Source: a bacterium
GTDB lineage: Bacteria; Auribacterota; Tritonobacteria; UBA1439
Assembly: GCA_028716845.1 (NCBI GenBank)
Contig: JAQUPF010000001.1
Coordinates: forward strand, 119,647 to 183,646
Reading direction: 5' to 3'
DNA: 64,000 bases
Below are positions 780 to 42,650 of the stretch, piece after piece. The notes beneath the pieces were generated by a model. The model ran no database searches. It worked only from the letters and a program-made list of their open reading frames with translations, and was not told where the DNA came from. The translations under genes and the position numbers were made by a program. Every line of letters starts with the position of its first letter. Position 1 is the first letter of the stretch.

Positions 780-825
780 CACCCTTTTTTCGCCGCGCAA
801 GCCGTAAAAAGTTCAGGAACAAATC

Positions 826-1012
826 CACCGCGGATTGCCGCGGATCATTGACGGATGTAACTACAGTTCAAAGTGAAAAGTCAAAAGTTCATAGTGTGGG
901 TAATCCGCGTCAATCCGCGGCAAAGACTTCATGTCTTCCGGCTGTGGCTGAATCCGCGAAGATCAGTGCTGATCCGCAAGAATCCGTGCCAATCCGTGGT
1001 GAATTGGTTCTT
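826..1012. repeat. Composite intergenic repeat, copy 1: phased CGCGGAT/ATCCGYG heptamers plus ACTACAGTTCAAAGT core
   Basis: Left-arm heptamers end at 835, 845 and 856. Core AACTACAGTTCAAAGTGAAAAGTCAAAAGTTCATAGT lies at 859-895. ATCCGCG-type heptamers start at 903, 913, 952, 962, 972, 982, 992 and 1003. The core is near-identical to 25494-25530. Confidence 0.9.
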
Positions 1013-3866: not shown

Positions 3867-3960
3867 CCCGCCCTCCCCGCCCCGCGCAGTCGCGGCGGCC
3901 GGCTCCCTTCATTCATTATCGTATTGCTAGAATAGCAGGATCACGGCCACGAAGCAAGAA

Positions 3961-4295
3961 TGCGATGCGGATTGACACGGATTTCACCATGCCACAGAGA
4001 TCACAGAGAGCGCGGAGGGAACGGTCTTTGCCGCAGATGTTCACCAATCTTCGATGGCGGGATGTCTTTTCTTCCGGCGTTCAACTTCTCACCACGGTGG
4101 ATGCTCTGTGACCTCTGTGTACTCCGTGGCGCACTACAACCGCTTGGATCCGCGTTCATCAGCGGTTCGCCACTCGTATTCGCGGAGATCCGCGGCTGAA
4201 ACGCCGGCTCGTTCGGCTGTTCGCCCCTGACCGCGGACGGATCCGTCTCTCCTGGCGTGATCCGCGGCATGATGATCCGTGCGAATCAGTCAACA
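3961..4295. repeat. Heptamer-array repeat region (GCGGAT/CACGGAT left, ATCCGCG/ATCAGCG/ATCCGTG right)
   Basis: Heptamers end at 3972 and 3982. Right-arm heptamers start at 4148, 4158, 4178 and 4188 (10-bp phase), then 4241, 4260, 4275 and 4285. Shares ATCCGCGGCTGAAAC with the copy at 25548-25563. Confidence 0.75.
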
Positions 4296-4341
4296 AGCCG
4301 CGCGGATCTGTTGCGGGGGATACATGGAATCTGCTGCGGGG

Positions 4342-4824
4342 CTAGGCCGGTCGGCGCTCAGCCAGCTTCCGGCGGGCGAGGCGGGCCCCCTCGAGGATCG
4401 CCTCGTAGCCGGTGCAGCGGCAGAGGTGGCGCGCGAGCGCCTCGACGATCGCCTCGTCGGGGGCGTCCGGCTGCCGGGAGAAGAGCGCGTCGAGTTCCAT
4501 GACGATCCCCGGGATGCAGTAGCCGCACTGGACCGCGCCCGCCTCGATCATCGCCTCCTGGACCGGGTGGAGTGCCCTCCCGTCGGCCATCCCCTCGATG
4601 GTGCGCACCTCCCTGCCGTCGGCCTTCGCGGCGAGGAAGAGGCAGCTCCGCTCCGCCTTCCCGTCCACGACGACGACGCAGGCGCCGCAGGAGCCGTCGT
4701 CGCAGCCGCGCTTCGTGCCGGTGAGGCCGAGCCGCTCCCGCAGGACATCGATGAGCCGCTCGCCGTCCTCGACCTCGACGCTGCGGCGGACGCCGTTGAC
4801 CGTGAGCGTGATCGTCTGTCCCAT
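4342..4824 (-). CDS. (2Fe-2S)-binding small subunit of a xanthine dehydrogenase/aldehyde oxidoreductase-family enzyme
   Basis: Last 160 aa of ORF 4342..6327: MGQTITLTVNG...GCDDGSCGACVVVVDG...CGYCIPG...CRCTGY. Both 2Fe-2S Cys motifs are present. Confidence 0.9.
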   Translation of the reverse strand: MGQTITLTVNGVRRSVEVEDGERLIDVLRERLGLTGTKRGCDDGSCGACVVVVDGKAERSCLFLAAKADGREVRTIEGMADGRALHPVQEAMIEAGAVQCGYCIPGIVMELDALFSRQPDAPDEAIVEALARHLCRCTGYEAILEGARLARRKLAERRPA

Positions 4825-7151
4825 CAGTTCTTCCCCTTCTCCTCGAGCGCCTTCTTGATCTTTTCCGGGGTGACCGGGATCTCGTAGAACTCCACGCCGA
4901 TGGCGTCGTGGATCGCGTTGAGGATCGCCGGGGCGACGCCGATGACCGGGTGCTCCCCGATGCCGCGCGCGCCGTAGGGGCCGATATGCTCCGGCGTCTC
5001 CACGAACTCGACCGTCCACCTGCCCGGCATCTCCCGCACGGTCGGGAAGCCGTACTTCCTGAAGTGGGGGTTGACCGCCGTGCCGTCCGGCCTGAACCTG
5101 AGCTCCTCGTAGAGGGTCGCGCCGATCGCCATCATCGCCCCGCCGGTCACCTGCCCCCTGATCTGCCGCGGGTTGATGACCCTCCCGACGTCGAAGCAGG
5201 AGGCGAGATGGTCGATGATGACCCTGCCGGTGGCCTTCTCGATCCGGAGCTCGCACGCCTGGGCGCCGAAGGTGTAGGTGATCCCCATCGTCCCCTGGCC
5301 GCACGCGTCCGGGTTGGACTGCCGCGGGAGGCGGGTGTCGGAGGTCGCGTGGACGACCTCGCCGACGGTCACGCCGTCGTCGTACATGTAGCCGCGGGCG
5401 AGCTTCGCGACCGCCACCCGCACGCTCGGGTCGTGGTTGAGAAAGATGTGCTCGCCGTCGTAGACGAGCCGGTCCTCGTCCACGCGGAGCACCTGCGCGG
5501 CCGTCCGTTTCATCATCGCGATGGCCTTCTCGGCGGCGCGGATGACCGACCGCCCCCCCTGGATCGTGAACATGGAGCCGATCGTCTGCCACTCCCAGGG
5601 CGAGAACTGCGTGTCGATCTCGGTGTAGACGGCGATCCGCTCGGGGGGGATCCTGAGCGCCTCGGCCGCCACCTGCCGCACCACCGTCCGGAGGCCCTGG
5701 CCGACCTCGGCGCCGCCCATGTTGATGGAGACGCTCCCGTCGGCGTTGAACTTGAGGTAGCAGCTCTTCGACGAGAACGGGGCGCCCTTCGGCGACTTCA
5801 TGAGCGCCGCGAAGCCGCGCCCGTAGTAGTAGCGGTCGTCCTCCGCCGCCGCCTTCGGCCTCGAGAAGACGATCTCCCGGATGACCGCGGCGCACTTCCG
5901 CACGTCGCCGTTCGACTCCCAGAGGCGCTCGCCGAGGGAGGTGGTCCTGCCGGGGCCGAGGTAGTTCTTCTCCCGGAGCGCGAACGGGTCCATGCCGAGC
6001 CTCCGGGCGAGGATGTCCATCATCCGCTCCACCGCGAACTGCGACTCCTGGTGGCCGTAGCCGCGGTAGGCGCCGACCGGCGGGGTGTTCGTGTAGACGG
6101 AGAGCCCCTCGAGGAGGCAGTGCGGGAACTCGTACGCGCCGGTCGAGTTGTGCGTGGCGGCGATGAGGACGTGGATGCCGGTGTCCTTCGAGGCGCCGGT
6201 CGAGTGGATGACGGTGGTCCGGAGCGCGGTGAGGGTCCCGTCGCGGCGCGCGCCGATCCTGATCCTCGTCCGCATGCCGTGGCCGATGAGGGTGCTGAGG
6301 AGGTCCTCCTGCCTCGTGGCGACCCACTTGACCGGCCGCCCGGGGACGAAGCTCGCGACATAGGCGACCGTCTGCTCGATGGTGACGTCCGACTTGTAGC
6401 CGAAGCAGCCGCCCACCTCGGGAATGTGGACGCGGACGGCGGAGGCCGGGAGGCCGTAGACGTGGGCGACGTCCTCGCGCACGATGAACGGGCAGATGGA
6501 GGACGACCAGATCTCGATCGTCCCGTCCTCGTGGAAGAGGGCGACCGCCCCGTGGGGCTCGATGGCGCCCGAGGAGCCGAACGGGTAGTTGAACTCCCCC
6601 TCGACGACGACCTCGGCCCGCCTGAACCCCTCATCGACGTCGCCCTTCCTGAGCGTGTAGCGGCCGGCGATGTTCGTCCCGGGGACGGCCTCCATCCCGG
6701 GCAGGTGCTCGAACGTCCCCGACTCCTCGTGGATGAGGACGGCGTCCTCCTTCATGGCGTCGCGGGCGTCGACGTAGACGGGCAGCGGTTCGTACCGGGC
6801 GACGATCTTCCCCACCGCGGCCCGCGCCTCACGCACCGTCTCGGCGATGACGGCCGCGACCGGCTCGCCGATCCACCGCACCTTGCCGACGGCGAGCGGC
6901 AGGCGGTCCTTGATGTTCTCGCCGTAGCGGAACCGGATGTCCCTCCCCGTGACGACCTTCACCACCCCGGGCATCCGCTCCGCCTCGGCGGTGTCGATCG
7001 AGAGGATCTTCGCGTGCGCGTGCGTCGGCCGCAGGAAGGCGGCGTGGAGCATGCCCGGCAGGCGGAGATCGTCGAGGAAGCGGACCTTCCCCGTGGCCTT
7101 GGCGACCGCGTCCGGCCGCGGGACGTTCTTGCCGATGTAGGTGAATTCCAT
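4824..7151 (-). CDS. Molybdopterin-binding large subunit of a xanthine dehydrogenase/aldehyde oxidoreductase-family enzyme
   Basis: 775 aa starting MEFTYIGKNVPRPDAVAKATGKVRFLDD. GGCFG and GEHP-type motifs are present. Its stop overlaps the small-subunit start by 1 nt (TGATG). Confidence 0.9.
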   Translation of the reverse strand: MEFTYIGKNVPRPDAVAKATGKVRFLDDLRLPGMLHAAFLRPTHAHAKILSIDTAEAERMPGVVKVVTGRDIRFRYGENIKDRLPLAVGKVRWIGEPVAAVIAETVREARAAVGKIVARYEPLPVYVDARDAMKEDAVLIHEESGTFEHLPGMEAVPGTNIAGRYTLRKGDVDEGFRRAEVVVEGEFNYPFGSSGAIEPHGAVALFHEDGTIEIWSSSICPFIVREDVAHVYGLPASAVRVHIPEVGGCFGYKSDVTIEQTVAYVASFVPGRPVKWVATRQEDLLSTLIGHGMRTRIRIGARRDGTLTALRTTVIHSTGASKDTGIHVLIAATHNSTGAYEFPHCLLEGLSVYTNTPPVGAYRGYGHQESQFAVERMMDILARRLGMDPFALREKNYLGPGRTTSLGERLWESNGDVRKCAAVIREIVFSRPKAAAEDDRYYYGRGFAALMKSPKGAPFSSKSCYLKFNADGSVSINMGGAEVGQGLRTVVRQVAAEALRIPPERIAVYTEIDTQFSPWEWQTIGSMFTIQGGRSVIRAAEKAIAMMKRTAAQVLRVDEDRLVYDGEHIFLNHDPSVRVAVAKLARGYMYDDGVTVGEVVHATSDTRLPRQSNPDACGQGTMGITYTFGAQACELRIEKATGRVIIDHLASCFDVGRVINPRQIRGQVTGGAMMAIGATLYEELRFRPDGTAVNPHFRKYGFPTVREMPGRWTVEFVETPEHIGPYGARGIGEHPVIGVAPAILNAIHDAIGVEFYEIPVTPEKIKKALEEKGKN

Positions 7152-9258: not shown

Positions 9259-10359
9259 ATGCACGAACGGACGCATCTCCCCGGTGAGCCCTGGCGGGCG
9301 GTCTTCCTCAACTCGATTTTGCCGGGGCTCGGCGAGTTCTCCGCCGGGATGCCGCTCAGGGGCGCCGCGTTCCTCGCGGGGGCGATCGGCCTCGCGGCCG
9401 CCCTCGCGGCGCGCCTGTACGCATTCATCTTCGTCCCCGCGGCCGCGACCGGCGTGCGGGCGATCGCAACCCTCGCGGCGCTCGCGGGCGCGCTCTTCCT
9501 CCTCGTCGTCGGCTCCTTCGTGGACGCGTACAGCGGCGTGAAACGCCGGAACAGGGAGCGCGGCCTCGCCATCCCGCCCGACCGGAGGAAGGCGCCCTGG
9601 TTGTCGGCGACGCTCTCCAGGTTCGTCCCCGGCCTCGGCCAGCTCTACAACGGCCGGTACGCGGCCGCGGGGCTCCATGCGGGGATCTGGCTCCTTCTCC
9701 TCTTTTTCCTCCACGCCTCCTGGCTCTTCGCGGCGGCGGGCGTCCTCGCGGTCCTGTCCATGGCGTCCGCCTACCGCGACGCCTCGCGGATCAACGGCGG
9801 CGCGGAGACGTTCCGCGGCGCGTTCGGCCCCCTTCCCCGGGCGGCCGTCGCCGCCGTCATCGTCGCCGGCTGCCTCCCCCTCCCCGCCCTCACGGGCCCC
9901 CACCTCTTCCGCGTGCACAGGATCGCCGGCGGGGCGATGCGGCCCGGCCTTCTTCCCAACGACAGGATCATCGTGGACACGGCGCTCTACCGCCTCGGCG
10001 GCATCAGGCGCGGCGACGTCGCGCTCTTCAAGGCGCCAGACCGGCCGGGGCAGTATTACACGAAGCGGATCGTCGGGATGCCGGGAGAGACGATCGAGAT
10101 CAGGGAGGGGAAGATCATCATCGACGGGGAGCCGCTCGTGACCGGGGGGGTCATCGACCGGATCCCCTACCGCAACTACGGCACCTGCTGCCTGCCCGGC
10201 GAGACCGTCCGCATCCCGGAGGGCCGCTACTTCTTCCTCGGCGACCGGATCGAGAACAGCCTGGACAGCCGCTTCTACGGCCCGATCCCCCTCGGCGAAT
10301 TCGGGGGGCGCGCGGTCAAGATCGTCCGCCCGCGCCGCCGCGCGGGGCCCGTCCTCTAG
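9259..10359 (+). CDS. Signal peptidase I (S26) homolog with an N-terminal multi-TM extension. The nucleophile position reads Ala.
   Basis: Box D YTKRIVGMPGE and box E LGDRIENSLDSRFYGPIP are present. Box B reads IAGGAMRPGL instead of SGSMxPTL. The N-terminal region has two PGLG(E/Q) motifs and about 5 TM. Confidence 0.8.
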   Translation: MHERTHLPGEPWRAVFLNSILPGLGEFSAGMPLRGAAFLAGAIGLAAALAARLYAFIFVPAAATGVRAIATLAALAGALFLLVVGSFVDAYSGVKRRNRERGLAIPPDRRKAPWLSATLSRFVPGLGQLYNGRYAAAGLHAGIWLLLLFFLHASWLFAAAGVLAVLSMASAYRDASRINGGAETFRGAFGPLPRAAVAAVIVAGCLPLPALTGPHLFRVHRIAGGAMRPGLLPNDRIIVDTALYRLGGIRRGDVALFKAPDRPGQYYTKRIVGMPGETIEIREGKIIIDGEPLVTGGVIDRIPYRNYGTCCLPGETVRIPEGRYFFLGDRIENSLDSRFYGPIPLGEFGGRAVKIVRPRRRAGPVL

Positions 10360-12937: not shown

Positions 12938-14395
12938 TCACTCCACCATGAAATCGGCGACGACCGGGAGGTGGTCGCTCGCCGTCGCGGTATCGGCCCT
13001 CCGGAGGCCGGCCGCGTCGAGGTCGGCGTCCGGCATGGAGGCGGTGCACAGCACGAAGCGGTTTCCCGCCGACGCCGCGGAATCGGTGTGGATCACGTAG
13101 TCGAGGCGGCCGGGTCCGAACCCCCTGCGATGGAAATGCACCCAGGTGTACACCTCGGCGGCGGCGATGTGCCGCGGGGAGAGGTCCGCCATCGGCGTCC
13201 CGTCCCAGTCCGGCGGGGCGGAGGGGCCGAAGGCCTCCTCGTCCGCGATTTGGCCCGTGAGCAGCGTCCGGAGCTGCCCGGCGCCGCCGACGAGATTGAG
13301 GTCGCCGGTGACGATCATCGGCGTGCCGACGGGGAGGGCCGCCTCGTGTCCCGGCGACTTGAGGTCCCGCAGGAGCGCGACGATCTCGTCGGCCTCCCGC
13401 TGCCGGCGCTCGTCCTTCGTGCCGCTCCCGAGGTGGGCGTTCACGACGAAGAGGTCGAGGCCGTGCCGGCCGTCGGGGAGGTCGATGAGCGCCCCCACGG
13501 CGCCCCGCAGCGGAACGGTCCGCGCGATCGGGTGCCGGCTCAGGGTGAAGCAGTCGATGTGGCTCGCGAGGTGCCAGGCGCCGCCCAGCATCCGCGTGAC
13601 GAGGGCACGGACCTCGTCGGGGCCGTGGCGCCGGATCTCCTGGAGGCAGAGGATGTCCGGATCGAGCGCCCGCAGGATCCGGGCGAACTCCTCCTCGCGC
13701 CTGAAGATGTTGTCCTCGTACACGTTCCAGGTGACGAGCCGGACGTGCCCCTCCGCCTCCCTCCCGATCCTCCCGGGTTCGACGCGGCGCGGGCGCCCTC
13801 GCCGCAGCCGCGCGCGCGCCGTCCGGCCCGCGTCCGGCGCGACGTCGCCGGCCTCGTCCCCCTCGTCGCGCAGGATCCAGGAAACGGTCCCCGACCGGAA
13901 GAGCGGAGGGATTCCCTCCGCGGGCGGCTCCTTGCGGAACTTGATCTCGAACTCCGACGACGTCACGGTGGGGGCCGTCACGAGGCCGATCTCGTAGGCG
14001 TTCACGGTCCGCGGGGAATCGCCGCGGTGCAGGGTGCCCCGCCGCCGTCCGAAGCGCCAGGAGAGGTCGGCGCCGATTCCGCCGACCGGGAGGCCGGTCG
14101 CGGCCGAGTCGTCGGTGTCCAGGTAGAGGACGATGTCGTTCCCCGACTGGAGGGAGATCTCCTTCCCGGTCTCGAAACGAATGAAGAGGGTGTCCCGGTC
14201 GTCGGCGATCCACACCCGGCCGAAATCGACGCCGGAGGGGCCGCTGTCCCCCGAAGGGTCGGCGTCGGCGGGGGCGATCCCGCGCCAGTCTTCGAAGCGG
14301 CCGTCGATCAGGATGGCCGGCGTCCCGGAGCGGCATCCCCCCGCGGCGCACAGGGCCGCCAGAAACAGCGCCGCCGCACAACGCGCGTGTCTCAT
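12938..14395 (-). CDS. Lipoprotein with a C-terminal endonuclease/exonuclease/phosphatase (EEP) domain
   Basis: Lipobox LAALCAAGGC. EEP motifs LVTWNV, LCLQE, NAHL, GDLN and SDHLPV are present. The N-terminal domain of about 200 aa is unassigned. Confidence 0.8.
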   Translation of the reverse strand: MRHARCAAALFLAALCAAGGCRSGTPAILIDGRFEDWRGIAPADADPSGDSGPSGVDFGRVWIADDRDTLFIRFETGKEISLQSGNDIVLYLDTDDSAATGLPVGGIGADLSWRFGRRRGTLHRGDSPRTVNAYEIGLVTAPTVTSSEFEIKFRKEPPAEGIPPLFRSGTVSWILRDEGDEAGDVAPDAGRTARARLRRGRPRRVEPGRIGREAEGHVRLVTWNVYEDNIFRREEEFARILRALDPDILCLQEIRRHGPDEVRALVTRMLGGAWHLASHIDCFTLSRHPIARTVPLRGAVGALIDLPDGRHGLDLFVVNAHLGSGTKDERRQREADEIVALLRDLKSPGHEAALPVGTPMIVTGDLNLVGGAGQLRTLLTGQIADEEAFGPSAPPDWDGTPMADLSPRHIAAAEVYTWVHFHRRGFGPGRLDYVIHTDSAASAGNRFVLCTASMPDADLDAAGLRRADTATASDHLPVVADFMVE

Positions 14396-14464: not shown

Positions 14465-15817
14465 TCAGAGGAGCCACTCGGCGATCGAGAAGTAGACGAG
14501 GACGCCGATGATGTCGCAGAGGGAGGTGACGAGCGGCGCGCTCGCCGCGGCGGGGTCCCGCCGGAGCCGCGTCAGGATGAACGGGAGCGACATCCCGATG
14601 ACGCTCCCGACGACGACCACCACCGCCATGGCGAGCGACGTGACGAGCGCCAGCCGGGGGCCGCCGCGATACAACCCGACGACGGAGACGGCCAGCCCCA
14701 TGGAGATGCCGAGCGCCGCGGCCGTGGCGAGCTCCCGGAGGATCATGCGCGCCCAGTCGCCCGCCCGGACGTCGCCCGTGGCGAGGGCGCGCACCATGAG
14801 CGTCGCCGCCTGGGTGCCCGCGTTCCCGCTGCTGTCGATGAGGAGGGGGAGGAAGAAGACGAGGGCGACGACCCGCGCGATCGTCGCCTCGAAGCACGCC
14901 ATCGCCGCGCCGGAGAAGAGGTTGACGAAGACGAGGAGGAGGAGCCACGAGATGCGCCGCCGGTAGAGGAGCGGGATCGGCGCGTCGCGGATGCTCGCGA
15001 TCATGCCGTCGCCCCGCTCGACGCTGACGGCCGCGATCTTCTGGAAATCCTCGCTCGCCTCGCGCTCCTGCACGTCCATGAGGTCGTCGACCGTCACGAT
15101 CCCGAGCAGGACGTTCTCGGAATCCACGACCGGGAGGGCGACGAGGTCGTAGCGACGGATGGTCCGGACCGCCTTCTCGCGGTCGTCGAAGGCCGACACG
15201 CTCACGAAGCTGCCGTCCATGATCTGCCCGACCTTCTCCTCGGTGTCCGCCAGAATGAACCGCCGGAGCTTGATGTCGTCCAGCAGCCGCCCGGATTCAT
15301 CCGTCACGTAGACCATGTTGACGGTCTCGCTGTCCTTCCCCCACCGCCGGATGTGGTCGAGCGCCTGTCGGATCGTCCACTCCGGCCGGACCGCCACGTA
15401 GTTCGGCGTCATCAGGCGCCCCACGCTCTCCTCCGGGTAGCCGAGGAGGCGGCTCGCCTCCCTGCGGTCTTCGGGGCCCAGGAAGTGGAGGAGGCGCCTC
15501 GTCACGGCGGCGGGCATCTCCTCGAGGAGGGCGGTCCGGTCGTCCGGCCGAAGGTCCGCCATGAGCTGGCCGGTCTCGCCGTCGGTCAGCTCCCTGAGGA
15601 CGACGTCCTGCTGCCGGCGGTCGAGGTAGGCGAAGACGTCGGCGGCGTGACGGCGAGGGAGGGCGCGGAAGAGGAGGACCCGGTCGTTCCGGTCGAGGCT
15701 CATGAGGAGGTCCGCCACCTCCGGCGGCGGCCACGCCGCGAGCCCCTCCTTCAGGGCAGGCCAGTTCCTCTCCCGGATGATGTCCCGGATGTCCGGGCCG
15801 AGCAGTTGCTTCAGCAT
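14465..15817 (-). CDS. mgtE: Magnesium transporter MgtE
   Basis: 450 aa with the N-domain, tandem CBS and a TM domain carrying PLLIDSSGNAGTQ. Confidence 0.95.
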   Translation of the reverse strand: MLKQLLGPDIRDIIRERNWPALKEGLAAWPPPEVADLLMSLDRNDRVLLFRALPRRHAADVFAYLDRRQQDVVLRELTDGETGQLMADLRPDDRTALLEEMPAAVTRRLLHFLGPEDRREASRLLGYPEESVGRLMTPNYVAVRPEWTIRQALDHIRRWGKDSETVNMVYVTDESGRLLDDIKLRRFILADTEEKVGQIMDGSFVSVSAFDDREKAVRTIRRYDLVALPVVDSENVLLGIVTVDDLMDVQEREASEDFQKIAAVSVERGDGMIASIRDAPIPLLYRRRISWLLLLVFVNLFSGAAMACFEATIARVVALVFFLPLLIDSSGNAGTQAATLMVRALATGDVRAGDWARMILRELATAAALGISMGLAVSVVGLYRGGPRLALVTSLAMAVVVVVGSVIGMSLPFILTRLRRDPAAASAPLVTSLCDIIGVLVYFSIAEWLL

Positions 15818-15981
15818 GGGAGAACGGCGTCAGCACATCGTGCGGACGCCCTCCGGGTGGTGCGATGATCGGCCGTCACGCGTCCCCTCCGAAGCAGGCC
15901 GGCGGTCACCCCTTCATGCGGGAGGGAGGACAACGGCGGAACAGGGCGGGGCGGCGGGAAGGGCCGGGGACGGCGAAGGCG

Positions 15982-16137: not shown

Positions 16138-16204
16138 TGCTCCCCCTTTCCCCCTGATTTCGCCGGAGCCCGCTCCCGAATCAACGCGGCCCCGCATCTC
16201 CGTG

Positions 16205-16290
16205 CTGTGTCACTTTGAACATTTTTGCTTTGAACTTTGACCCGTAGTTGCGCACGCCGGATTCCGCGACGCCATCCGAATTATACGCCG
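16205..16290. repeat. Partial copy of the TTCAAAGT-core repeat (ACTTTGAAC...CTTTGAACTTTGAcccGTAGTT), followed by ATTCCGCG/ATCCGAA heptamers
   Basis: Read directly. It has the same orientation as the copy at 19120-19160. Confidence 0.7.
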
Positions 16291-16416
16291 GATGTATCGC
16301 ATTCGCCAGTCAATAAACGCCCTGGTTGGAATAACCTGTTGCGATTAATGAGTCTATATTGCACTATCCGATTCCACGCAGCGAGATTACGCACAAGGAA
16401 TCGTTGGAGCTGAGAG

Positions 16417-16842
16417 ATGAAACCTCTGATTACACTGGCAATGCTTGGACTGCTCGCCGGGTGCGCCACCCGTCATACCGGACCTTCCGCCGCACCCCCC
16501 TCCGGAGCCGACATGACCCTCCACCAATTCAACTCGGACACCGGCCTCGGCGTCTGGCGAGTCGAGGATGACAGCGTCATGGGCGAGCGCTCCCGCGGAC
16601 GCCTCGCCATCAACGAAGCAGGCAATGCGCTGTTCAGCGGCGGAATCTCCCCCGACAACGGCGGCGGTTTCTCGTCGATTCAAACCGAATTCGGCCCCAT
16701 CGACGTCTCCGCCTATCGCTTCCTGTGCATCGGCCTCAAGGGCGACGGCAAGCGCTACCAGGTGCGCGTCGAGTCCACCCCGGTCGTGACGCTCGAGCGG
16801 AATCAATGGAAGGCAATCAGGATATGCCTTTTCTCCGCATAA
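16417..16842 (+). CDS. CIA30-domain lipoprotein, apparently 3'-truncated
   Basis: Lipobox LLAGC. WRVEDDSVMGERS...FSGGISPDNGGGFSSI...LKGDGKRYQV matches the CIA30 pattern. The C-terminal part of the domain seems to be missing. Confidence 0.65.
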   Translation: MKPLITLAMLGLLAGCATRHTGPSAAPPSGADMTLHQFNSDTGLGVWRVEDDSVMGERSRGRLAINEAGNALFSGGISPDNGGGFSSIQTEFGPIDVSAYRFLCIGLKGDGKRYQVRVESTPVVTLERNQWKAIRICLFSA

Positions 16843-17276
16843 GGGGAATCGCTGCATGTGCCGTCATCGTCATGCTTGCGGCAGTATTGCTCCGGCGGTC
16901 GATCGTCACATACACCGAGGTCGATCCTGAAATCGCCCGACATCTTCGGGATATCCTGGCTGTCGAGTATGCATCGCCGCTCTTGTCCGATACCGCGGAA
17001 GGCCTGCACGAACGGGATGCAGGCGCATTCGAAGACGCAGCCGAGAGAATGCTCACATGGCACACGACCTTCGCGGAAAGGATAACGTTCCCCTCCCTGA
17101 CTTCCAAGGTGAACGGGAGTCGGATCCTTGTACGAGCGGAGATTTTCGTGGACGGCCATCCACCGCCTGTCGGTAAATCCACCCGCTATTTCCAGTTCCA
17201 CCATTCCATGCTGTCGGGATACACCTATGACGCGGAGGTGGCGGCATTGAATTACCATCTCCCTTTCCTGGACTAG
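16824..17276 (+). CDS. Hypothetical membrane-anchored protein (150 aa) in the lower-GC segment
   Basis: ATG at 16824. N-terminal TM GIAACAVIVMLAAVLL. No family recognised. Confidence 0.4.
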   Translation: MPFLRIRGIAACAVIVMLAAVLLRRSIVTYTEVDPEIARHLRDILAVEYASPLLSDTAEGLHERDAGAFEDAAERMLTWHTTFAERITFPSLTSKVNGSRILVRAEIFVDGHPPPVGKSTRYFQFHHSMLSGYTYDAEVAALNYHLPFLD

Positions 17277-17540
17277 CCGCGATCAGAATTCGTGGAGACT
17301 GCTCGGGCGGTGGGCGAGGAGCATGGAGTGAAGCCGGGTGATCCGCTCAAGGCGCGCTCGCCATACCGGCCGCGCGGCGTATGCTCATTGAAACAGGGCA
17401 TCGGTTGAATATGCGTCACGAGCAAATATAGCCAATAGTCGAGGTCCGACCCTGATTCTCTTTCCAGCCGGCGGCTGAGCTTCACGTTGGGCAGAAAAGA
17501 AGATGATGCATATTCCCCGGACAATCAGTAAAATAAGTGC

Positions 17541-17726
17541 GTGATTCAGAAGACAGTGACGGTAAAAAGATTGAGCGAATCGTCCAGCCGTGATGACCTG
17601 GCGTTCTGGCGCAGGCGCGCTGCGTCGGATCGAATCGGGGCGGTGGAAACCCTGCGCAGACAGGCTCATGGAAGTCCAACCCGACTTCAGAGAACTGCTC
17701 GCGTTGTTCAACGAGCGCGGGATTGA
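17541..17726 (+). CDS. Small protein usually found upstream of a nucleotidyltransferase (possible antitoxin-like partner)
   Basis: GTG start. 61 aa, TVKRLSESSSRDDLAFWRRRAASDRIGAVETLRRQAHG...RLQRTARVVQR. The pattern resembles small partners I have seen in such pairs. It overlaps the next CDS by 59 nt in another frame. Confidence 0.4.
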   Translation: MIQKTVTVKRLSESSSRDDLAFWRRRAASDRIGAVETLRRQAHGSPTRLQRTARVVQRARD

Positions 17727-18114
17727 GTACGTCATCGTGGGGGCTTACGCCCTTGCCTACCACGGCGCTCCCCGTTTCACCGGCGACATCGATATCTATG
17801 TCCGGCCCACGCCGGAGAATGCCTACCGTATCATCGAAGCGCTCACGTCGTTCGGCTTTGGCTCAGTTGGACTGAAGGCGGACGATTTCCAGGAGCCGGA
17901 CCACGTTGTCCAACTCGGCGTCCCGCCGGTCAGAATAGACCTCGTCACATCGCTCACCGGCGTCTCCTGGGAACAAGCCGATGCCGGCAAAGCAGCCGGC
18001 ACGTATGGCGATGTCGACGTCCATTACCTCGGCCGTGATCAGTACCTCCAGAACAAGCGGGCCATGGGCAGGAAGAAGGATATCGCCGACCTCGAGGCAC
18101 TGGGGGAGGCCTGA
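17668..18114 (+). CDS. Nucleotidyltransferase-fold protein (DUF6036/AbiEii-like small NTase)
   Basis: MEVQPDFRELLALFNERGIEYVIVGAYALAYHGAPRFTGDIDIYV is a typical N-terminus for this family. Confidence 0.65.
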   Translation: MEVQPDFRELLALFNERGIEYVIVGAYALAYHGAPRFTGDIDIYVRPTPENAYRIIEALTSFGFGSVGLKADDFQEPDHVVQLGVPPVRIDLVTSLTGVSWEQADAGKAAGTYGDVDVHYLGRDQYLQNKRAMGRKKDIADLEALGEA

Positions 18115-18199
18115 TTCACCGAACCACCTTTGAGCGGACTCTCGCGACCGGGGCGGTGCGCAGCGCCGCCCTAATAAGCCGCTCGAGCGGAGCGCGCAC

Positions 18200-18224
18200 G
18201 GGCCCCCGCCTGAGGCGGGGCCCC
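18200..18224 (+). other. GC-rich hairpin (GGGCCCCCGCC-TGA-GGCGGGGCCCC) with no T-tract
   Basis: Perfect 11-bp stem read directly. It is not a canonical terminator because there is no U-run. Confidence 0.4.
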
Positions 18225-18269
18225 TCCCGCGGCAGCGCAGCTTCGTCGTTAGCGATTCATAGAGGATTC

Positions 18270-18593
18270 ATGAGTTCTTCTTGTTTTTCAGAAAGTACTG
18301 AATACCCTTTAAGCTCACCCAAACAAGCTGAAGATTTATACTTTGCGCTGTCGGAGAAGATTCATAAATGCGACAAGAGCGCGCAGCTTAAGAAGTTGCG
18401 TGCGTATTGTGAAGAGAGTCTGCCGCTTCTACCTGGCCTTGTAAAAAGCACAATCGATCAATATGGCAAATTCGATATAGGCTCCATACCGGCTTTAGAA
18501 CTCGGTTGCACATATTGGTCGGCATTGGATGATCGGAAATCTCTTGAGATTGCGGGGATTGAAAAAAGTTCAGGGTCAGACCTCTACTATTGA
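18270..18593 (+). CDS. Hypothetical protein (107 aa) in the most AT-rich part of the window
   Basis: ATG at 18270 within ORF 18156..18593. No family recognised. Confidence 0.35.
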   Translation: MSSSCFSESTEYPLSSPKQAEDLYFALSEKIHKCDKSAQLKKLRAYCEESLPLLPGLVKSTIDQYGKFDIGSIPALELGCTYWSALDDRKSLEIAGIEKSSGSDLYY

Positions 18594-18661
18594 CTAAGAA
18601 GCTGCGCTGAGCAATGCGCTCCGGCCGATCCCGGCAAGGCGGGACGGCTGAGCTCTTCGCT

Positions 18662-18970
18662 ATGTCACAGAGAAGAATAGCACCTGGTGTGGTACATGGT
18701 GTCCCGGCGGACTTGCGAAAAGCCCTTACCGCCGACAGAGATGCACTGACCCTGTGGGAAGATATCACGCCGCTCGCGCGCAATGAATGGATTTGCTGGG
18801 TTGAGGACGCCAGGAAACCGGAAACAAGGCTCAGCCGGATAGAGAGAGTGCGCGCGGAGCTTAAAGAGGGAATGCGCCGGCCGTGTTGCTGGCCCGGTTG
18901 CCCCCACCGGGGGAAAAAGGCAAGCGCGCCCGCAAGTCTGAATCGCAATAAAAAGCCGCCTCACACATAA
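18662..18970 (+). CDS. YdeI/OmpD-associated family protein
   Basis: VPADLRKALTADRDALTLWEDITPLARNEWICWVEDARKPETRLSRIERVRAELKEGMRRPCCWPGCPHR is the characteristic family pattern. Confidence 0.7.
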   Translation: MSQRRIAPGVVHGVPADLRKALTADRDALTLWEDITPLARNEWICWVEDARKPETRLSRIERVRAELKEGMRRPCCWPGCPHRGKKASAPASLNRNKKPPHT

Positions 18971-19119
18971 CAATTCGTTGCAGCGGACGGAGATTGATCG
19001 CCCTCCGCTGCTGAATTCTTACGTTGAGGAGGCGCTGCGGGGAAATAAGAAGTGGTGCGCGACGTGCGCAGAGATGGTTCCGCTTGAAACCTGACACCAC
19101 TGACCATTTGCTTGGCACT

Positions 19120-19160
19120 CTGTACTTTGAACTTTCAACCTTGAACCTTGAACTGTAGTT
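19120..19160. repeat. TTCAAAGT-core repeat copy abutting the rnpB 3' end
   Basis: Forward ACTTTGAACTTTCAACCTTGAACCTTGAACTGTAGTT. On the minus strand, AACTACAGTTCAAGG follows the RNase P RNA directly. Confidence 0.8.
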
Positions 19161-19526
19161 GAGGCTCGCCTGTAAGCCGGATTCTGTCTTCCCCGCCGAG
19201 GCGGGGGAGGCGGCCATTCATCTGGGCCTCGGATTGCTCCTCGGCTCAATGCGGCCTACCCGGGGCTTCACCCTTTCGGGACGGGACGGGCAGCCCCGTC
19301 GCCCCCTATTTGGCCTTGCTCCGCGCAGAGTTTACCGCGTTTCACCCCCGCCGCCTCTTGCGAAGCGGCGGGACTCGTCTCTGTGGCACTCGTCCTCGCC
19401 GCTCGGCCTTTCGGCCTCGCGACGGCCCGGATATTCTCCGGGTGCGCCGCCCTGCGGAGTCCGGACTTTCCTCCCCTCGCGCGCCTCAGGCGCGCTCGGG
19501 GCGGCCGCCCGGCGCGCCCCAACCAC
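19157..19526 (-). ncRNA. rnpB: RNase P RNA, bacterial type A
   Basis: Minus strand contains GAGGAAAGTCCGGACTCC (P4), GGTAAACTCTGCGCGGAGCAAGGCCAAATAGGGG, AGATGAATGGCCGCC and GACAGAATCCGGCTTACAGG. A P1 pairing of GGTTGGGGCGCGCCGG with CAGGCGAGCCTCAACT sets the ends, give or take a few nt. Confidence 0.92.
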
Positions 19527-19613
19527 AGCCACAATGTCAAAGAGCAGTTCGAGGGAAACCTGACTACCGGCGCGGATCCGCCGGCCGTTCTCCTCCGCCC
19601 CTCCCCGTTCCCG

Positions 19614-20445: not shown

Positions 20446-20580
20446 ATGCGCGAAGACGTATTATGCAACCCTCTGCACGTCAGCGCGATAGAGAATAATC
20501 CACCGGCCAGGCGACGCGGGCAGAATCTCCCGGCACCGCCTTCAGCCGCAATCAGTCCCGCACAAGGTCCACAGTTCCAT

Positions 20581-20609
20581 TTTACATTCGACGCGCGGTG
20601 ATCTATAGT
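20581..20609 (+). promoter_or_regulatory. Candidate promoter TTTACA-N17-TATAGT upstream of tRNA-Val
   Basis: Read directly. It lies about 190 nt upstream of the tRNA. The leader would contain a TTCAAAGT repeat copy. Confidence 0.45.
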
Positions 20610-20640: not shown

Positions 20641-20672
20641 AACTTCAGTTCAAAGTTGAAAGTCTGACGGAT
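20641..20672. repeat. Short TTCAAAGT-core copy (AACTTCAGTTCAAAGTTGAAAGT) followed by CGGAT
   Basis: Read directly. Confidence 0.6.
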
Positions 20673-20875: not shown

Positions 20876-20877
20876 GC

Positions 20878-20913
20878 ACTACAGTTCAGCGTTTAAAGTC
20901 GAAAGTCCAAAGC
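20878..20913. repeat. TTCAAAGT-core repeat copy starting 2 nt after the tRNA-Val CCA
   Basis: ACTACAGTTCAGCGTTTAAAGTCGAAAGTCCAAAGC. Confidence 0.7.
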
Positions 20914-20976
20914 AATAGATGGTGTCGCAGCGGCGTCACCGGCTCCGGGCGACGCCGTCTCGCATGAGGGGGTTCC

Positions 20977-24486: not shown

Positions 24487-25428
24487 TCACTCAAAATGCG
24501 GGAACCCCCCCTCGGCAAGCGGCGCCTCCCGCCCCTCCCGGACGAGCGTGATACCCGATGTCCGCCCCACGACCTCGCCGATGCGCGTGACCGGGCAGTC
24601 GAACCGAGCCGCGAACTCCCGCTCGAGCGCCGCCGGGTCGCCGCCGGCGGGGAGGGTGAAGAGGAGCTCGAAATCCTCGCCGTCGTAGAGCGCGTGCCGG
24701 ACCGCGGTCTCATCGTCCGCCTCGCCCGTCGCCGCGCGGTCCACGGGGACGCTCCCGGCGTCGATCCTGAAGCCGGCCCGGCTCTCGGCCGCCATCCGGT
24801 GGAGATCGCCGCCGAGGCCGTCGCTCAGGTCCATCATCGCCCGGACGCCGAACCGCTCGACGAGGAACCGCGCCTCGCGCACGCGCGGCATGAACGCCAG
24901 GTGCCTGCCCGCGAGCGATCCGCCCAGCCGCCCCGTGACCCACACGGTCTCGCCGGGGCGGGCCGCCGAGCGGCGGGCGACGCGATCGCGCTCGACCTCC
25001 CCGCAGACCGTGACGGCGATGACGAGCCCCGCGCCGCTCCGCACGGTGTCGCCGCCGACGATGGGGCAGTCGAATCGCCGCGCGAGGTCGTCCGCGCCGC
25101 GGTAGAGCTCGCGGCAGAACGCGACCGCCGTCTCCGGCGGCGCCCCGAGCGCGATGAGGGCGGCGCGGGGGAGGCCCCCCATCGCCGCGATGTCGCTCAG
25201 GCCGCAGCCGACCGCCTTCCACCCGATCCCGCGCGCGGCGTCCCGGTCGCGGTCGAAGTGCGTCCCCTCGACGAGCATGTCGGTCGTCAGGAGCGCGAGG
25301 ATCCCCTCGCGCCCGCACTCGATCGCCGCCGCGTCGTCCCCGATGCCGATGACGGTCCCGGGCGCCGCGGAGACCGCCTTCCGGATCTCCTCGATGAACG
25401 GGAACTCGCCCAGGTCCCTCAATCTCAT
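24487..25428 (-). CDS. thiL: Thiamine-monophosphate kinase
   Basis: ATG at 25428. LGEFPFIEEI...IGIGDDAAAI...TTDMLVEGTHF...SDIAAMGG. Confidence 0.9.
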   Translation of the reverse strand: MRLRDLGEFPFIEEIRKAVSAAPGTVIGIGDDAAAIECGREGILALLTTDMLVEGTHFDRDRDAARGIGWKAVGCGLSDIAAMGGLPRAALIALGAPPETAVAFCRELYRGADDLARRFDCPIVGGDTVRSGAGLVIAVTVCGEVERDRVARRSAARPGETVWVTGRLGGSLAGRHLAFMPRVREARFLVERFGVRAMMDLSDGLGGDLHRMAAESRAGFRIDAGSVPVDRAATGEADDETAVRHALYDGEDFELLFTLPAGGDPAALEREFAARFDCPVTRIGEVVGRTSGITLVREGREAPLAEGGFPHFE

Positions 25429-25460
25429 GTGCCGTCGGTTCCGGTACTCAATGAACCCCC

Positions 25461-25662
25461 CACCACGGATCTCCACGGATTATCGGCGGATGTAACTACA
25501 GTTCAAAGTGAAAAGTCAAAAGTTCAAAGTGGCGGTAATCCGCGTCAATCCGCGGCTGAAACTCCGCCGTTTTCCGCTTTGAACTTTCAACTTTGGACTG
25601 TAGTTTGGATCAGTGGCGATCCGTGATGATCCGTGGCCATCAGTGGCAGATTGGTTCTTTTT
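25461..25662. repeat. Composite intergenic repeat, the most complete copy
   Basis: CACGGAT-type heptamers end at 25470, 25480 and 25491. The core lies at 25494-25530. AATCCGCG starts at 25538 and 25548. The inverted core GCTTTGAACTTTCAACTTTGGACTGTAGTT lies at 25576-25605. Heptamers start at 25609, 25619, 25629, 25639 and 25650, followed by GGTTCTTTTTGC. Confidence 0.92.
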
Positions 25663-25683
25663 GCCCGGGGCGGCGGAGTCCCC

Positions 25684-26733
25684 TCAGCGCCGGTCCCGAC
25701 GGAGGGCGGCGGCGATGCTCCGCCGGTACGGCGGGCGGAGGACGCCGACCTCCGTGATGATCCCGCTGATGAGGCGCGCCGGCGTCACGTCGAAGGCGGG
25801 GTTGTAGACCCGCACCCGCCGCGGGGCGATCCGCCGGCCGGCGAACGTCCGCACCTCGTCCGGGTCCCGCTCCTCGATCGGTATGCCCCTCCCCGAGGCG
25901 GTGGCAGGGTCGATGGTCGAGAGCGGCGCGGCGATGTAGAACGGCACCCGGTGGGCGCGGGCGAGGTGGGCGAGGCCGTAGGTGCCGATCTTGTTGGCGG
26001 TGTCGCCGTTCGCGGCGATGCGGTCGGCCCCCGTGATGACGCAGGTGATCCTCCCCTCCCCCATCACCTTCGCGGCCATGTTGTCGCAGATGAGCGTCGT
26101 GTCGATCCCCGCCCGCGCGAGCTCCCACGCGGTCAGCCGGGCCCCCTGGAGGAGCGGCCGCGTCTCGTCCGTGTACACGCGGATCCGCTTCCCCCCCTCG
26201 TGGGCGGCATAGACGACGGCGAGCGCCGTGCCGTACCGAGCGGTCGCGAGCCCCCCGGCGTTGCAGTGGGTCAGGACGGCGTCGCCGTCGCGGAGGAGGG
26301 CGGCGCCGTGCCGGCCGATACCGCGGCAGACGGCGTTGTCCTCCTCGAGGATGGCGAGCGCCTCACGCTCCAGGAGGCGGGTGAGGGCGCGGGGGCCGCC
26401 CGCCCGGTGCCGCTCCGCCGTCTCGAGCATCCGCCGGAGCGCCCAGAAGAGGTTCACCGCCGTCGGCCGCGCCGTGCCGATGTAGCGGGCAGCCTTCCGC
26501 ACGTCCCGCATGAGCCCCGCGGCGTCCGCCGCCTTCGAGCGGCGCGCGCCGAGGACGACGCCCATCGCCGCCGCGATGCCGATGGCGGGGGCGCCGCGGA
26601 CGGCGAGCCGCCGGAGCGCGTCGTGCACGTCCTCCGGCGCCCTGCACTCGATGTAGACGAGCTCCTCCGGCAGCCTCGTCTGGTCGACGATCCGCATCCT
26701 CCCCCTCTTCCAGTCGACGGTCTTGATATTCAT
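25684..26733 (-). CDS. mtnA: S-methyl-5-thioribose-1-phosphate isomerase
   Basis: MNIKTVDWKRGRMRIVDQTRLP...VRGAPAIG...GADRIAANGDTANKIGTY. Confidence 0.9.
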   Translation of the reverse strand: MNIKTVDWKRGRMRIVDQTRLPEELVYIECRAPEDVHDALRRLAVRGAPAIGIAAAMGVVLGARRSKAADAAGLMRDVRKAARYIGTARPTAVNLFWALRRMLETAERHRAGGPRALTRLLEREALAILEEDNAVCRGIGRHGAALLRDGDAVLTHCNAGGLATARYGTALAVVYAAHEGGKRIRVYTDETRPLLQGARLTAWELARAGIDTTLICDNMAAKVMGEGRITCVITGADRIAANGDTANKIGTYGLAHLARAHRVPFYIAAPLSTIDPATASGRGIPIEERDPDEVRTFAGRRIAPRRVRVYNPAFDVTPARLISGIITEVGVLRPPYRRSIAAALRRDRR

Positions 26734-27803: not shown

Positions 27804-27900
27804 GCGGCACCTCCTCCGACGGACGGCGGATGGTAGCATCCCCGGGGGGGTCGTGCAAGGCGGCCCGGCCCGGCGGCGGCGGCCGGATTAATGAACTCCT

Positions 27901-27991
27901 CACCACGGATCTTCGCTGATCATTGACGGATCTGCACGGATTATTCCGAAACGGCATCCGTGATATCCGTGATGATCCGTGCCGGTCCGCG
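27901..27991. repeat. Heptamer-only palindromic array (4 + 4 sites, 10-bp phase)
   Basis: CACGGAT-type sites end at 27910, 27920, 27931 and 27941. ATCCGTG-type sites start at 27956, 27965, 27975 and 27985. Confidence 0.85.
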
Positions 27992-28102
27992 GCTGTTTGT
28001 TCATCATATCCGGTTGGAATGGGCGCGAACGCGCCGGCGGCGGGGTCGTTGACACCCCCCCTCCTCTCGCCTACAATGCGGCGTGGCCCGGAAAGGACCG
28101 CC

Positions 28103-32922: not shown

Positions 32923-33190
32923 GGCGTCACCGCGCCCTCGGGCGCCGCGCTCATCCCGATCGCTCCTCCGTCCGCACTGTACACGATCGCCGCGGGCGCC
33001 GTCAAACCAAATCCGCCTCCGATTTCTCCGCTGCGCATCGGAGAAATCGGAGTGTCCGATGTCCACCCGCGATAATCCCCGGCGGAAACCCTGTTTCTTT
33101 CAGCCCCGGCCCCCGGGCGCCGCCGCGGCGCCCGGGCCGGCACCTCCTTGCCGTCCCCTCCCGGCCTGTAGTACAATCCCGCCCTGTCCC

Positions 33191-41491: not shown

Positions 41492-41551
41492 ACCACCCCG
41501 CCGGCGGGCCCGCAATCGCCCCCGCGGCATGGACGGCGCGCGAAGCGCCCT

Positions 41552-41696
41552 TCACCACGGATAGACACGGAGCACGACGGATAATCACGGATCCGGCTGA
41601 AGCCCGCGGCACATGCGCGCGGATGAACACAGAAACGCGAGAAACCCGCGAGAGGACAATCCGTGGATATCCGTCAGGAATCAGCGGATTTCCGTG
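41552..41696. repeat. Heptamer-array repeat (4 + 4 sites, 10-bp phase)
   Basis: CACGGAT-type sites end at 41562, 41572, 41582 and 41592. ATCCGTG-type sites start at 41659, 41669, 41680 and 41689. GGATCCGGCTGAAGCC resembles the other copies. Confidence 0.85.
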
Positions 41697-41705
41697 GCGG
41701 GGAGT

Positions 41706-42650
41706 TCATTGCCCCGCCGCGCCGCACGGCCGCCGTGATCGGCGCACGGACGGGCGGGCGAGGAGCGACCGGAGGACCCTGAGGTTCCGCGCGTCCTCCC
41801 GCATCTCCTTCCCCTTCGGCGTCTCGAGGACCATCGGCAGCCCCGCGAAGCGCGCGTCGTTCAGGAGCAGCCTGAACGCCCCAAGGCCGAGGTGCCCCTT
41901 CCCGATGTGCGCGTGCCGGTCGAGGCGCGAGCCGAGGCCCCCCCTGCAGTCGTTCAGGTGGAAGGCGAGGATGCGCCGCAGGCCGACGGTCCGGTCGAAC
42001 TCGTCCGTCACCCGCGCGTACCCCCGCTCGTCGCGGATGTCGTAGCCGGCGGCGAAGACGTGGCAGGTGTCGAGGCAGACGCCGAGGCGGTGCGGCAGCG
42101 ACGCCCCCGCCGCGATCTCCGCGAGATGCTCGAAGCGCCCGCCGACGCTGTTCCCCTGGCCGGCGGTCGTCTCGAGGAGCACCTTCGCCGTCCCGGGAAC
42201 GCCCTCCAGCGCCTCGTCCAGTCCCGCGACGATCCTCCCGATGCCCGCCCGGATGCCCGCGCCGCCGTGGGAGCCGGGGTGGAGGACGATGAACGGCAGG
42301 TTCAGCTCGGTGACGCGCCGCAGCTCCTCCGCGAGGGACCGCACGGACCTCCGCCGCACCGCCCTGTCCGACGAGGCGAGGTTGATAAGGTAGGAGGAGT
42401 GGGCGAACAGCGCGCGGATGCCGGATGCCGCACGGGCGGTCTCGAACCGGGCGCCCTCGCCGGGCGCGAGCGGGCGCATCTTCCAGCGGACGTTGCTCTT
42501 GACGAAGATCTGGACGGCGTCGCAGCCGACGCGAAGGCCGCGGACGATCGCCTGTTCCACGCCGCCGGCGATGGACATGTGCGCCCCGAGGAGGGGCGGC
42601 GCGGCGCGGCCCGGGACGTGCGCCCTACGGCGCCGGCTCGGGAGGGGCAT
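41706..42650 (-). CDS. nfo: Endonuclease IV
   Basis: LLGAHMSIAGG...FAHSSYLINLAS...VLHPGSH...LETTAGQG...CLDTCHVFAAGYD...HLND. First ATG at 42650. The track start is a TTG at 42656. Confidence 0.9.
   Translation of the reverse strand: MPLPSRRRRAHVPGRAAPPLLGAHMSIAGGVEQAIVRGLRVGCDAVQIFVKSNVRWKMRPLAPGEGARFETARAASGIRALFAHSSYLINLASSDRAVRRRSVRSLAEELRRVTELNLPFIVLHPGSHGGAGIRAGIGRIVAGLDEALEGVPGTAKVLLETTAGQGNSVGGRFEHLAEIAAGASLPHRLGVCLDTCHVFAAGYDIRDERGYARVTDEFDRTVGLRRILAFHLNDCRGGLGSRLDRHAHIGKGHLGLGAFRLLLNDARFAGLPMVLETPKGKEMREDARNLRVLRSLLARPSVRRSRRPCGAAGQ

Follow-up and report, generated by a model that had tools for sequence, protein, structure and literature searches.

What fills the 255-nt gap between mtnA and thiL in a genome of the phylum Auribacterota, at a junction where two related genomes (L097 and L106) have a 4-nt overlap and a third (L107) has only 16 nt? 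The gap lies in a 64-kb stretch of contig JAQUPF010000001.1 (GenBank assembly GCA_028716845.1), which is referred to here as the window. The best named matches of the window proteins were 'Candidatus Aureabacteria' (Auribacterota)-like, with 69 to 73% identity for MtnA and 54 to 55% for trigger factor. An earlier note on this DNA had described the occupant of the gap, here designated element B, as one composite repeat in which inverted arrays of CACGGAT/ATCCGTG heptamers with a 10-bp period surround an AT-rich TTCAAAGT core. Analysis of the window, of related genomes, and of phage contigs revealed instead a mosaic of two modules, designated H (the heptamer arrays) and K (the core); K is independent of H, older, and associated with stable-RNA genes. 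We tentatively favor the reading that element B belongs to a family of lineage-specific mosaic palindromic intergenic repeats, in which H would serve as a docking array on duplex DNA and K as a processing stem at the RNA level.

The window was searched for runs of the H unit ATC[CA]G[TC][GCA] with a spacing of 9 to 11 nt, and 200 shuffles keeping dinucleotides were used as the null model. Runs of at least two phased units were found 13 times, compared to a mean of 0.5 and a maximum of 3 in the shuffles, and runs of at least three units were found 7 times, compared to 0 in all 200 shuffles. The bare heptamer ATCCGYG was not enriched (71 matches compared to 57 ± 7 expected), which indicates that the signal consists of clustering and phasing. 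Relaxed arrays of at least three units numbered 3 in random genome loci (~708 kb), compared to the 7 in the window. The 49 units of the window gave the consensus R-ATC(C/A)G-Y-G, in which Y and G carry 0.7 bits each. The spacer positions between these heptamers carry ~0 bits, in agreement with the earlier statement that the spacers are not conserved.

All phased runs fell within five loci, A to E. As had been noted before, the copies are intergenic and richer in AT than their surroundings, with a GC content of 52 to 62% compared to 70 to 77% in the flanks and 70% in the window. The polarity of the arms was constant at the five loci, with CACGGAT-type units in the left arm and ATCCGTG-type units in the right arm, so that each locus forms a long imperfect palindrome. 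Elements A, B, C, and D have common ends, GAAC-N5-6-CACCACGGAT ... ATCCGTGG-N-GTTC, which are terminal inverted repeats (TIRs). Over 104 nt, in which the spacers are counted, elements A and B share 88% identity, and B and C share 81% over 42 nt of their left ends. The shared architecture of the copies and the absence of runs of at least three units from the shuffles indicate that the dispersed family is real. The copy at 826-1012, said to follow the plan of B, and the heptamer-only loci placed at 3961-4295, 27901-27991, and 41552-41696 were all recovered. The earlier coordinates proved correct within 1 nt; the AATCCGCG of the note would start 1 nt earlier than ATCCGCG. Locus E contains a second type of unit, CACAGAG/CTCTGTG, with 9-nt spacing and in inverted orientation, at 3995-4013 and 4104-4128.

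Within the nested palindrome of element B (Table 1), K arm R is 76% complementary to arm F over 42 nt and is one 7-nt unit shorter, and the motif ATCCGCGGCTGAAAC of the central loop was also found in locus E. All five loci fold end to end as hairpins. Element B reached -90.8 kcal/mol in such a fold; the z scores were -8.4 for B, -5.5 for C, -5.2 for A, and -2.6 for D. A promoter-like TTGAAC-16-GATAAT inside B, facing thiL, is specific to this copy. An intrinsic terminator was considered and rejected: no terminator-like site was detected in 25300-25800, and no T run follows the right arm in the A, B, C, or D copy. When transcribed from the minus strand, the nested hairpin would form a stem-loop of ~200 nt (-91 kcal/mol), which may process or stabilize the mRNA.

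Module K has the form of an ACTACAG...CTGTAGT stem with arms of 7-nt units. Its 16-mer core, with at most three mismatches, had 8 matches in the window compared to 0.02 expected, and ACTACAG had 7 matches compared to 0.4 expected. In the tRNA-Lys/tRNA-Leu spacer, CCA is immediately followed by CTACTGCCG, and 3 nt (GAG) separate the end of CTGTAGTT from tRNA-Leu. At the RNase P RNA gene, the leader pairs with the trailer arm in a duplex of -24.9 kcal/mol. The position of the K arm after tRNA-Val is kept in L097, L101, and L106. ACTACNG started exactly 2 nt after CCA in 10 of the 12 Auribacterota-like tRNAs without a T run or T-rich trailer; the other two are the tRNA-Lys of the window, with the related CTACTGCCG, and the tRNA-Val of L107, with none. 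On the other side of the spacers, CTGTAGT or CTGCAGT precedes the downstream tRNA and ends 3 to 5 nt before the called tRNA start. The base helix is constant, and the arm units vary by spacer and genome (TTCAAAG in the window, GGATAAG and TTACTCG in L111, CTAATCA and AGTGTAA in L115). The same plan was found in tRNA spacers of L093 and L007, metagenome-assembled genomes (MAGs) labelled 'Nitrospirae'; apart from these two, the matches listed in a scan of the genome collection with the 16-mer core were almost all chance singles. ACTACAG was not enriched in the phage loci described below (29 matches compared to ~131 expected at equal base frequencies).

The sense strand was the more stable one in 9 of 11 K hairpins, with a mean difference of approximately -5.5 kcal/mol. 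The fixed position at the mature RNA ends and the folding of the sense strand lead us to read K as a precursor stem of stable RNAs, that is, probably as an RNA processing stem. It resembles the rRNA precursor stems cut by RNase III in three respects: a stable-RNA gene stands directly between complementary sequences, the stem is conserved at its base, and folding is better on the sense strand. It differs from them in that K flanks tRNAs and RNase P RNA and reuses one 7-nt helix with locus-specific tandem arms. The idea that the core of arm R is, in general, a sigma-70 promoter was dismissed, because the motif ends 3 to 5 nt before mature tRNA 5' ends. By eye, ordinary TTGACx/TATAxT promoters of tRNA-Lys, tRNA-Gly, and tRNA-Val lie elsewhere. 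The sole ACTACAG/CTGTAGT match of the window outside K arms is in 33148-33177, which holds a promoter-like TTGCCG-18-TACAAT ~15 nt upstream of an ATG. The region 16200-19120, which may represent an acquired island with the K arms at 16214 and 19124 as its boundaries, has a lower GC content (55 to 58%). Its products are a CIA30-domain lipoprotein, an AbiEii-like nucleotidyltransferase, and an OmdA-family protein.

The relatives compared include L097, L101, L106, L107, L110, L111, and L115. The block histidine kinase, Rce1-like, mtnA, thiL, tsaE, tsaB ... tRNA-Val, CT398-like is syntenic in L097, L101, L106, L107, and L110. The empty orthologous sites that the earlier note had proposed to look for were found, as the mtnA-thiL junction lacks the element in L097, L106, and L107. 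In L107 (70% GC), it is the tsaE-tsaB gap that contains an H palindrome, with three CACGGAT units on each side (CCACGGATtgaCACGGATacaCACGGAT, loop, GATCCGTGaaGATCCGTGtcaATCCGTGG); this gap measures 134 nt in L107 compared to 0 to 34 nt in L097, L101, and L106. In L115 (56% GC), three CGCGGAT/TGCGGAT units face two AATCCGCG units with a period of 9. Module H is present beyond the window.

Several other repeats were observed in these relatives. The mtnA-thiL gap of L101 (11110-11325) contains an unrelated TIR element (AATTGGTGTCAGAACTCCCTAA...). Nearly all operon-internal gaps of L115 hold hairpins whose arms are tandem short units that differ per gap (CACTGAG, GATTAAG, TTAGGGA, GTATGGGGG, and CGCGGAT), with examples at 5176-5243, 6714-6774, 9467-9602, 12993-13130, and 14953-15009; tandem-unit hairpins in operon gaps are a habit of the phylum. 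At the site orthologous to element C, L107 has three tandem copies of a 13-nt sequence, ATGAATAGCGGAG, at 5610-5650; a TTGACC-16-TATATA promoter of the PAS histidine kinase gene follows directly. In L097, the 3'-terminal 21 nt of tRNA-Val together with ACTACAGC (ATCGCCCACCAGCACTACAGC) are found again ~140 nt downstream (15800-15960, minus strand); this duplication of the tRNA 3' end looks like the att-type scar of an integrative element.

IMG/VR contigs were searched for three CACGGAT units with 2- to 4-nt gaps. At least 120 stretches were returned, compared to a chance expectation estimated at ~0.04, and 72 distinct contigs were present among the 80 matches listed, so that more arrays exist. 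Two of the listed contigs were examined, and both are phages: one encodes a head protease and a portal protein, and the other encodes a large terminase and Mu-like transposition proteins. After deduplication, 155 of 171 arrays among the matches listed had exactly three units. The periods were 9 nt in 159 cases, 10 nt in 175, and 11 nt in 27, with the period-9 matches inflated by coding tandem repeats (L124, L126, L136, L146, and L192). The strict 10-bp phasing of the earlier note is not universal: phage contigs have periods of 9 and 10 with about equal frequency, and the period in L115 is 9. The heptamers of the phage arrays are invariant and the spacers are free; AAC stands before the first unit, and no conserved sequence follows the array. 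Arrays that did not depend on selection by the search pattern had two units in 89 cases, three in 50, and four in 2.

An inverted partner within 160 nt was found for 33 of 151 phage arrays (22%), and the remaining 78% are single-armed. In the palindromic subset, the heptamer positions are 91% complementary and the spacer positions 66%. Relative to the flanking coding strands, as judged from crude open reading frame (ORF) and third-codon-position GC (GC3) calls and in small numbers, arrays were sense to both flanks in 7 cases and antisense to both in 7; with one callable flank, the counts were 12 and 11. Some arrays that follow a stop codon and precede a ribosome-binding site had at first suggested a sense-strand, and hence RNA, bias, which these counts did not confirm. 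Hydrogenedentota and Abyssubacteria, suggested as hosts by terminase homologues, were also rejected, since 33 kb of those genomes contained no arrays. BLAST of a consensus hairpin against phage and plasmid collections gave no match, possibly through the low-complexity filter. On phage contig L162 (~170-200 and 2988-3014), arrays are nested in palindromic arrays of other 7-nt units (GGATACG and GGTTTCA), which parallels the nesting in the window composite. A 7.7-kb phage contig, L127, carries two near-identical palindromic elements of ~180 nt, 204 bp apart (4064-4460), which suggests a recent local duplication.

What, then, is recognized in H? We read the arrays as duplex-DNA elements because the heptamers are invariant and the spacers free, the arrays stop sharply at three units, single arms are common, and neither orientation nor folding shows a bias. 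Between the two strands, the folding energies of H elements differ in no consistent direction (sense versus antisense, +2.5, -2.8, +0.1, -4.5, and +2.9 kcal/mol). An H module would consist of about three (A/C)AC-CACGGAT units every 9 to 11 bp, on which a sequence-specific protein would dock with one protomer per helical turn, along one face of the DNA. In palindromic copies, two such docking arrays would face each other. The protein might be the enzyme responsible for copying the element (a recombinase or transposase), or else a conserved factor of the host, of which phages make use as well. In elements A and B, module K would have been captured inside, or inserted into, the H palindrome. The preference of the earlier note for protein sites over an RNA stem thus appears sound for the heptamer arrays, but an RNA stem is the probable role of the K core. 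A bolder version, which we hold with less confidence and regard as doubtful, is that triple AAC-CACGGAT arrays are recognized by one conserved DNA-binding protein or recombinase, common to a group of uncultivated bacteria (Auribacterota-like and others) and their phages, and, independently, that the K bracket is a new precursor-processing signal for stable RNAs in the phylum.

Several results weigh against the docking of a protein on H. No binding protein, transposase, or REP-associated tyrosine transposase (RAYT) was detected in the window by tblastn with the Y1 protein of L111 or in a Pfam screen of 20 window ORFs, neighbors of the arrays included. The target-site duplication that the earlier note had suggested looking for was not visible, as inspection of the five loci by eye revealed no flanking direct repeat. 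The genes adjoining phage arrays share no protein family, and the exact H-K junction had 3 matches, all by chance, in a scan of Joint Genome Institute (JGI) metagenomes, which makes the composite so far unique to the source genome. The copy number is extrapolated from the 64-kb window only, and the limits given above for the orientation and period-9 counts apply here as well. Finally, the stable folds of the palindromic window copies and the partial spacer complementarity of the phage palindromes would also permit a hairpin of RNA or single-stranded DNA. An RNA hairpin is the strongest rival, although we consider it rather improbable: the transcribed palindrome would be a 3' exonuclease barrier, an RNase III-type site, or a terminator/attenuator, all of which are documented roles of REP/BIME sequences in Escherichia coli. 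Its proponents could point to end-to-end folds beyond those of the shuffles, to the position of the B, D, E, L107, and L115 copies between codirectional genes, to the spacer complementarity retained in phage palindromes, and to the inner K module with its fixed distance from mature tRNA ends and its sense-strand advantage. However, most phage arrays have a single arm and lie in both orientations relative to genes, the H elements have no consistent difference in stability between sense and antisense strands, and element B lacks a T-run terminator. In the window copies, moreover, the spacers read as unpaired 3x3 loops, and it is the heptamer sequence itself that is conserved, not merely its pairing.

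The remaining explanations fit fewer of these observations. An operator family, one of the suggestions of the earlier note, would make the arrays immobile cis-acting sites of a single host transcription factor, such as a winged-helix response regulator or an MraZ-like ring protein binding direct repeats one turn apart. In its favor, every one of the five window loci has at least one gene start downstream of it, the heptamers recur in conserved form in different genomes, and units of ~7 bp with free 3-nt spacers, about three of them at ~10 bp, recall the MraZ boxes and OmpR/PhoB-type sites, which consist of at least three direct repeats of 5 to 7 bp with 10- to 11-bp spacing. However, the neighbors are functionally unrelated (a cold-shock protein, thiL, a histidine kinase, a sugar-phosphate isomerase-like protein, and a xanthine-dehydrogenase-like protein), as are the genes adjoining phage arrays; the arrays are missing from orthologous promoters in relatives, element C does not include the conserved Rce1 promoter, and the copies share sequence beyond the motif. 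MraZ, OmpR, and PhoB sites are also confined to one or a few promoters per genome, whereas H arrays are dispersed, often palindromic, and present in phages. No regulator gene or other positive evidence was found, and we regard this explanation as unlikely. Somewhat less likely still is a neutral by-product, in which the palindrome arms would grow by slippage of short units and be repaired by template switching, without partner or function. The gap-specific hairpins of L115 and the variable K arm units speak for it, but slippage alone would keep the spacers too and would not stop at three units, and the same heptamer recurs in genomes of 46 to 70% GC and in unrelated phages. The partition or nucleoid-organizing array proposed in the earlier note is very improbable. 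Iteron-like repeats one turn apart around a central region recall the ParR-parC centromere, where two arrays of direct iterons flank the promoter of the adjacent par genes; here, in contrast, the two arrays are inverted, five copies are dispersed over 64 kb, single phage genomes carry arrays at many intergenic junctions, and neither a par gene among the screened neighbors nor any positive evidence was found. We give hardly any credence to control of the CsrA type, in which CACGGAU would provide GGA sites that titrate or recruit a CsrA/RsmA-like protein. The sequence CACGGAUG is similar to RUACARGGAUGU, the consensus selected for CsrA in vitro (SELEX), and some phage arrays abut a ribosome-binding site, but the GGA motifs of palindromic copies are located in stems and not in loops, and the arrays are antisense as often as sense.

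The favored docking reading was also compared with described repeat systems. Like the DNA uptake sequences (DUS) of Neisseria and the uptake signal sequences (USS) of Haemophilus, the heptamer is a short exact motif, independent of orientation, that often forms inverted pairs between genes and occurs in hosts and phages. DUS and USS are single 9- to 12-mers, whereas H forms triple phased arrays, and there is no evidence of competence. Integron attC sites have RYYYAAC ... GTTRRRY ends and stand in tandem cassette arrays next to intI. The phage copies have TTTAAC...GTTAAA-like ends, but most are single-armed and no cassette array is present, and attC was rejected. With miniature inverted-repeat transposable elements (MITEs) that have subterminal repeats bound by a transposase, the family shares a length of 110 to 360 bp, a composition richer in AT than the host genome, TIRs, nested insertions, and presence or absence at orthologous sites, as at the mtnA-thiL and tsaE-tsaB junctions. 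The MITE-like origin considered in the earlier note is therefore backed by the empty sites, but no transposase, no autonomous partner element, and no target-site duplication were found in the window, and no end sequence of an insertion sequence (IS) family was recognizable.

Repetitive extragenic palindromes (REP), bacterial interspersed mosaic elements (BIME), and REPINs with RAYT transposases have been described for enterobacteria and Pseudomonas (PMC3116915, PMC6006769). The present elements likewise are short intergenic imperfect palindromes at high density (five loci in 64 kb), are built from mosaic modules, are tolerated inside operons, and persist vertically in a lineage. REP units have a conserved tetranucleotide of the GTAG type at the head of each palindrome; the K base helix (CTGTAGT) contains GTAG, and the H units lack it. 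The H arms differ in that they consist of about three 7-nt units with free spacers in place of one conserved palindrome of 20 to 40 nt, the phage copies are mostly single-armed, and no RAYT, in REP systems a cognate single-copy Y1 transposase gene with the repeats on its flanks, was found in the window. REP sequences are species specific, whereas the H heptamer is common to very different genomes and phages. A fusion of a Y1 transposase and a DnaA C-terminal domain in L111 (3620-4766) was excluded as a partner, since tblastn revealed no homologue in the window. This fusion has different TIRs of its own, of the GGGGTCAG type with GGGGTCAGGTCTACGC inverted repeats, as described for TIRYT-type transposases (PMC6006769). 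A cluster of DnaA boxes was likewise rejected: the unit RATCCGYG differs in its last three positions from the CACA of the consensus TT(A/T)TNCACA (PMC6006769). Rfam 15 gave no match over the elements at the gathering threshold or at E ≤ 1. At four phage loci, microRNA or snoRNA models matched far below threshold, in one case over the array hairpin (L135, 3917-3989). A search of full-text papers found no publication with the heptamer or the repeat strings, and the repeat, which the earlier note could not assign to a described family, is apparently undescribed.

Table 1. Coordinates of H and K features and of selected genes in the window
Feature	Position	Strand	Sequence or structure	Location
Element A	815-1012		plan of B without K arm R; 3 H units left, 5-6 H units right	between cold-shock gene (minus) and DUF5666 gene (plus)
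Locus E	3950-4310		long degenerate H-type mosaic	
Solitary K arm R	16214-16249	+	followed by CCGGAT/ATCCG motifs	~170 nt upstream of CIA30-domain gene
K arm F	19124-19165	-		abuts 3' end of RNase P RNA gene
RNase P RNA gene	19157-19520	-		
R-like leader	19521-19545	-	CTTTGACATTGTGGCTGTGGTT	directly upstream of RNase P RNA
Solitary K arm F	20641-20665	+	followed by GACGGAT	between sigma-70-like promoter (by eye, ~20575-20608) and tRNA-Val
K arm F	20877-20915	+		starts 2 nt after CCA of tRNA-Val
thiL	24487-25428	-		
Element B	25450-25662		nested palindrome: H arm, K arm F, loop, K arm R, H arm	mtnA-thiL intercistronic gap
Left H array of B	25461-25491	+	CCACGGAT ctc CACGGAT tatc GGCGGAT; 3 units: CACGGAT 25464-25470 and 25474-25480, GGCGGAT 25485-25491	
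K arm F of B	25494-25532	+	AACTACAG, then 7-nt units TTCAAAG/TGAAAAG/TCAAAAG/TTCAAAG	
Central-loop units of B	25537-25556	+	two AATCCGCG; ATCCGCG starts at 25538 and 25548	
K arm R of B	25574-25605	+	CCGCTTTGAACTTTCAACTTTGGACTGTAGTT, inverted partner of arm F	
Right H array of B	25609-25657	+	ATCAGTG, ATCCGTG, ATCCGTG, ATCAGTG (starts at 25609, 25619, 25629, 25639), terminal ATTGGTTC (start at 25650)	
mtnA	25684-26733	-		
Element C	27880-28015		H-only palindrome, 4 left and 3-4 right units, AATGAAC...GTTCAT ends	divergent gap between Rce1-like gene and PAS histidine kinase gene
Element D	41540-41712		H-only palindrome	between two minus-strand genes
K hairpin	60637-60737	-	-37.4 kcal/mol, z = -3.5	fills tRNA-Lys/tRNA-Leu spacer

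Apart from these features, the window contains a 45-nt tandem repeat, present three times with 82% identity at 63583-63739, probably inside a coding region.

If H docks one conserved factor, the arrays would provide a handle to find this factor in candidate phyla without cultured members, and they could mark the host linkage of uncultivated phage contigs. If this reading is true, H would represent a new genome-wide class of cis-acting elements, on par with REP or uptake sequences, in hosts and phages. The K motif at tRNA and RNase P RNA genes would open the maturation of stable RNAs in Auribacterota to experiment. Even if the family were only a selfish repeat, it would still document insertion into tight operon junctions and modules shared between bacteria and phages.

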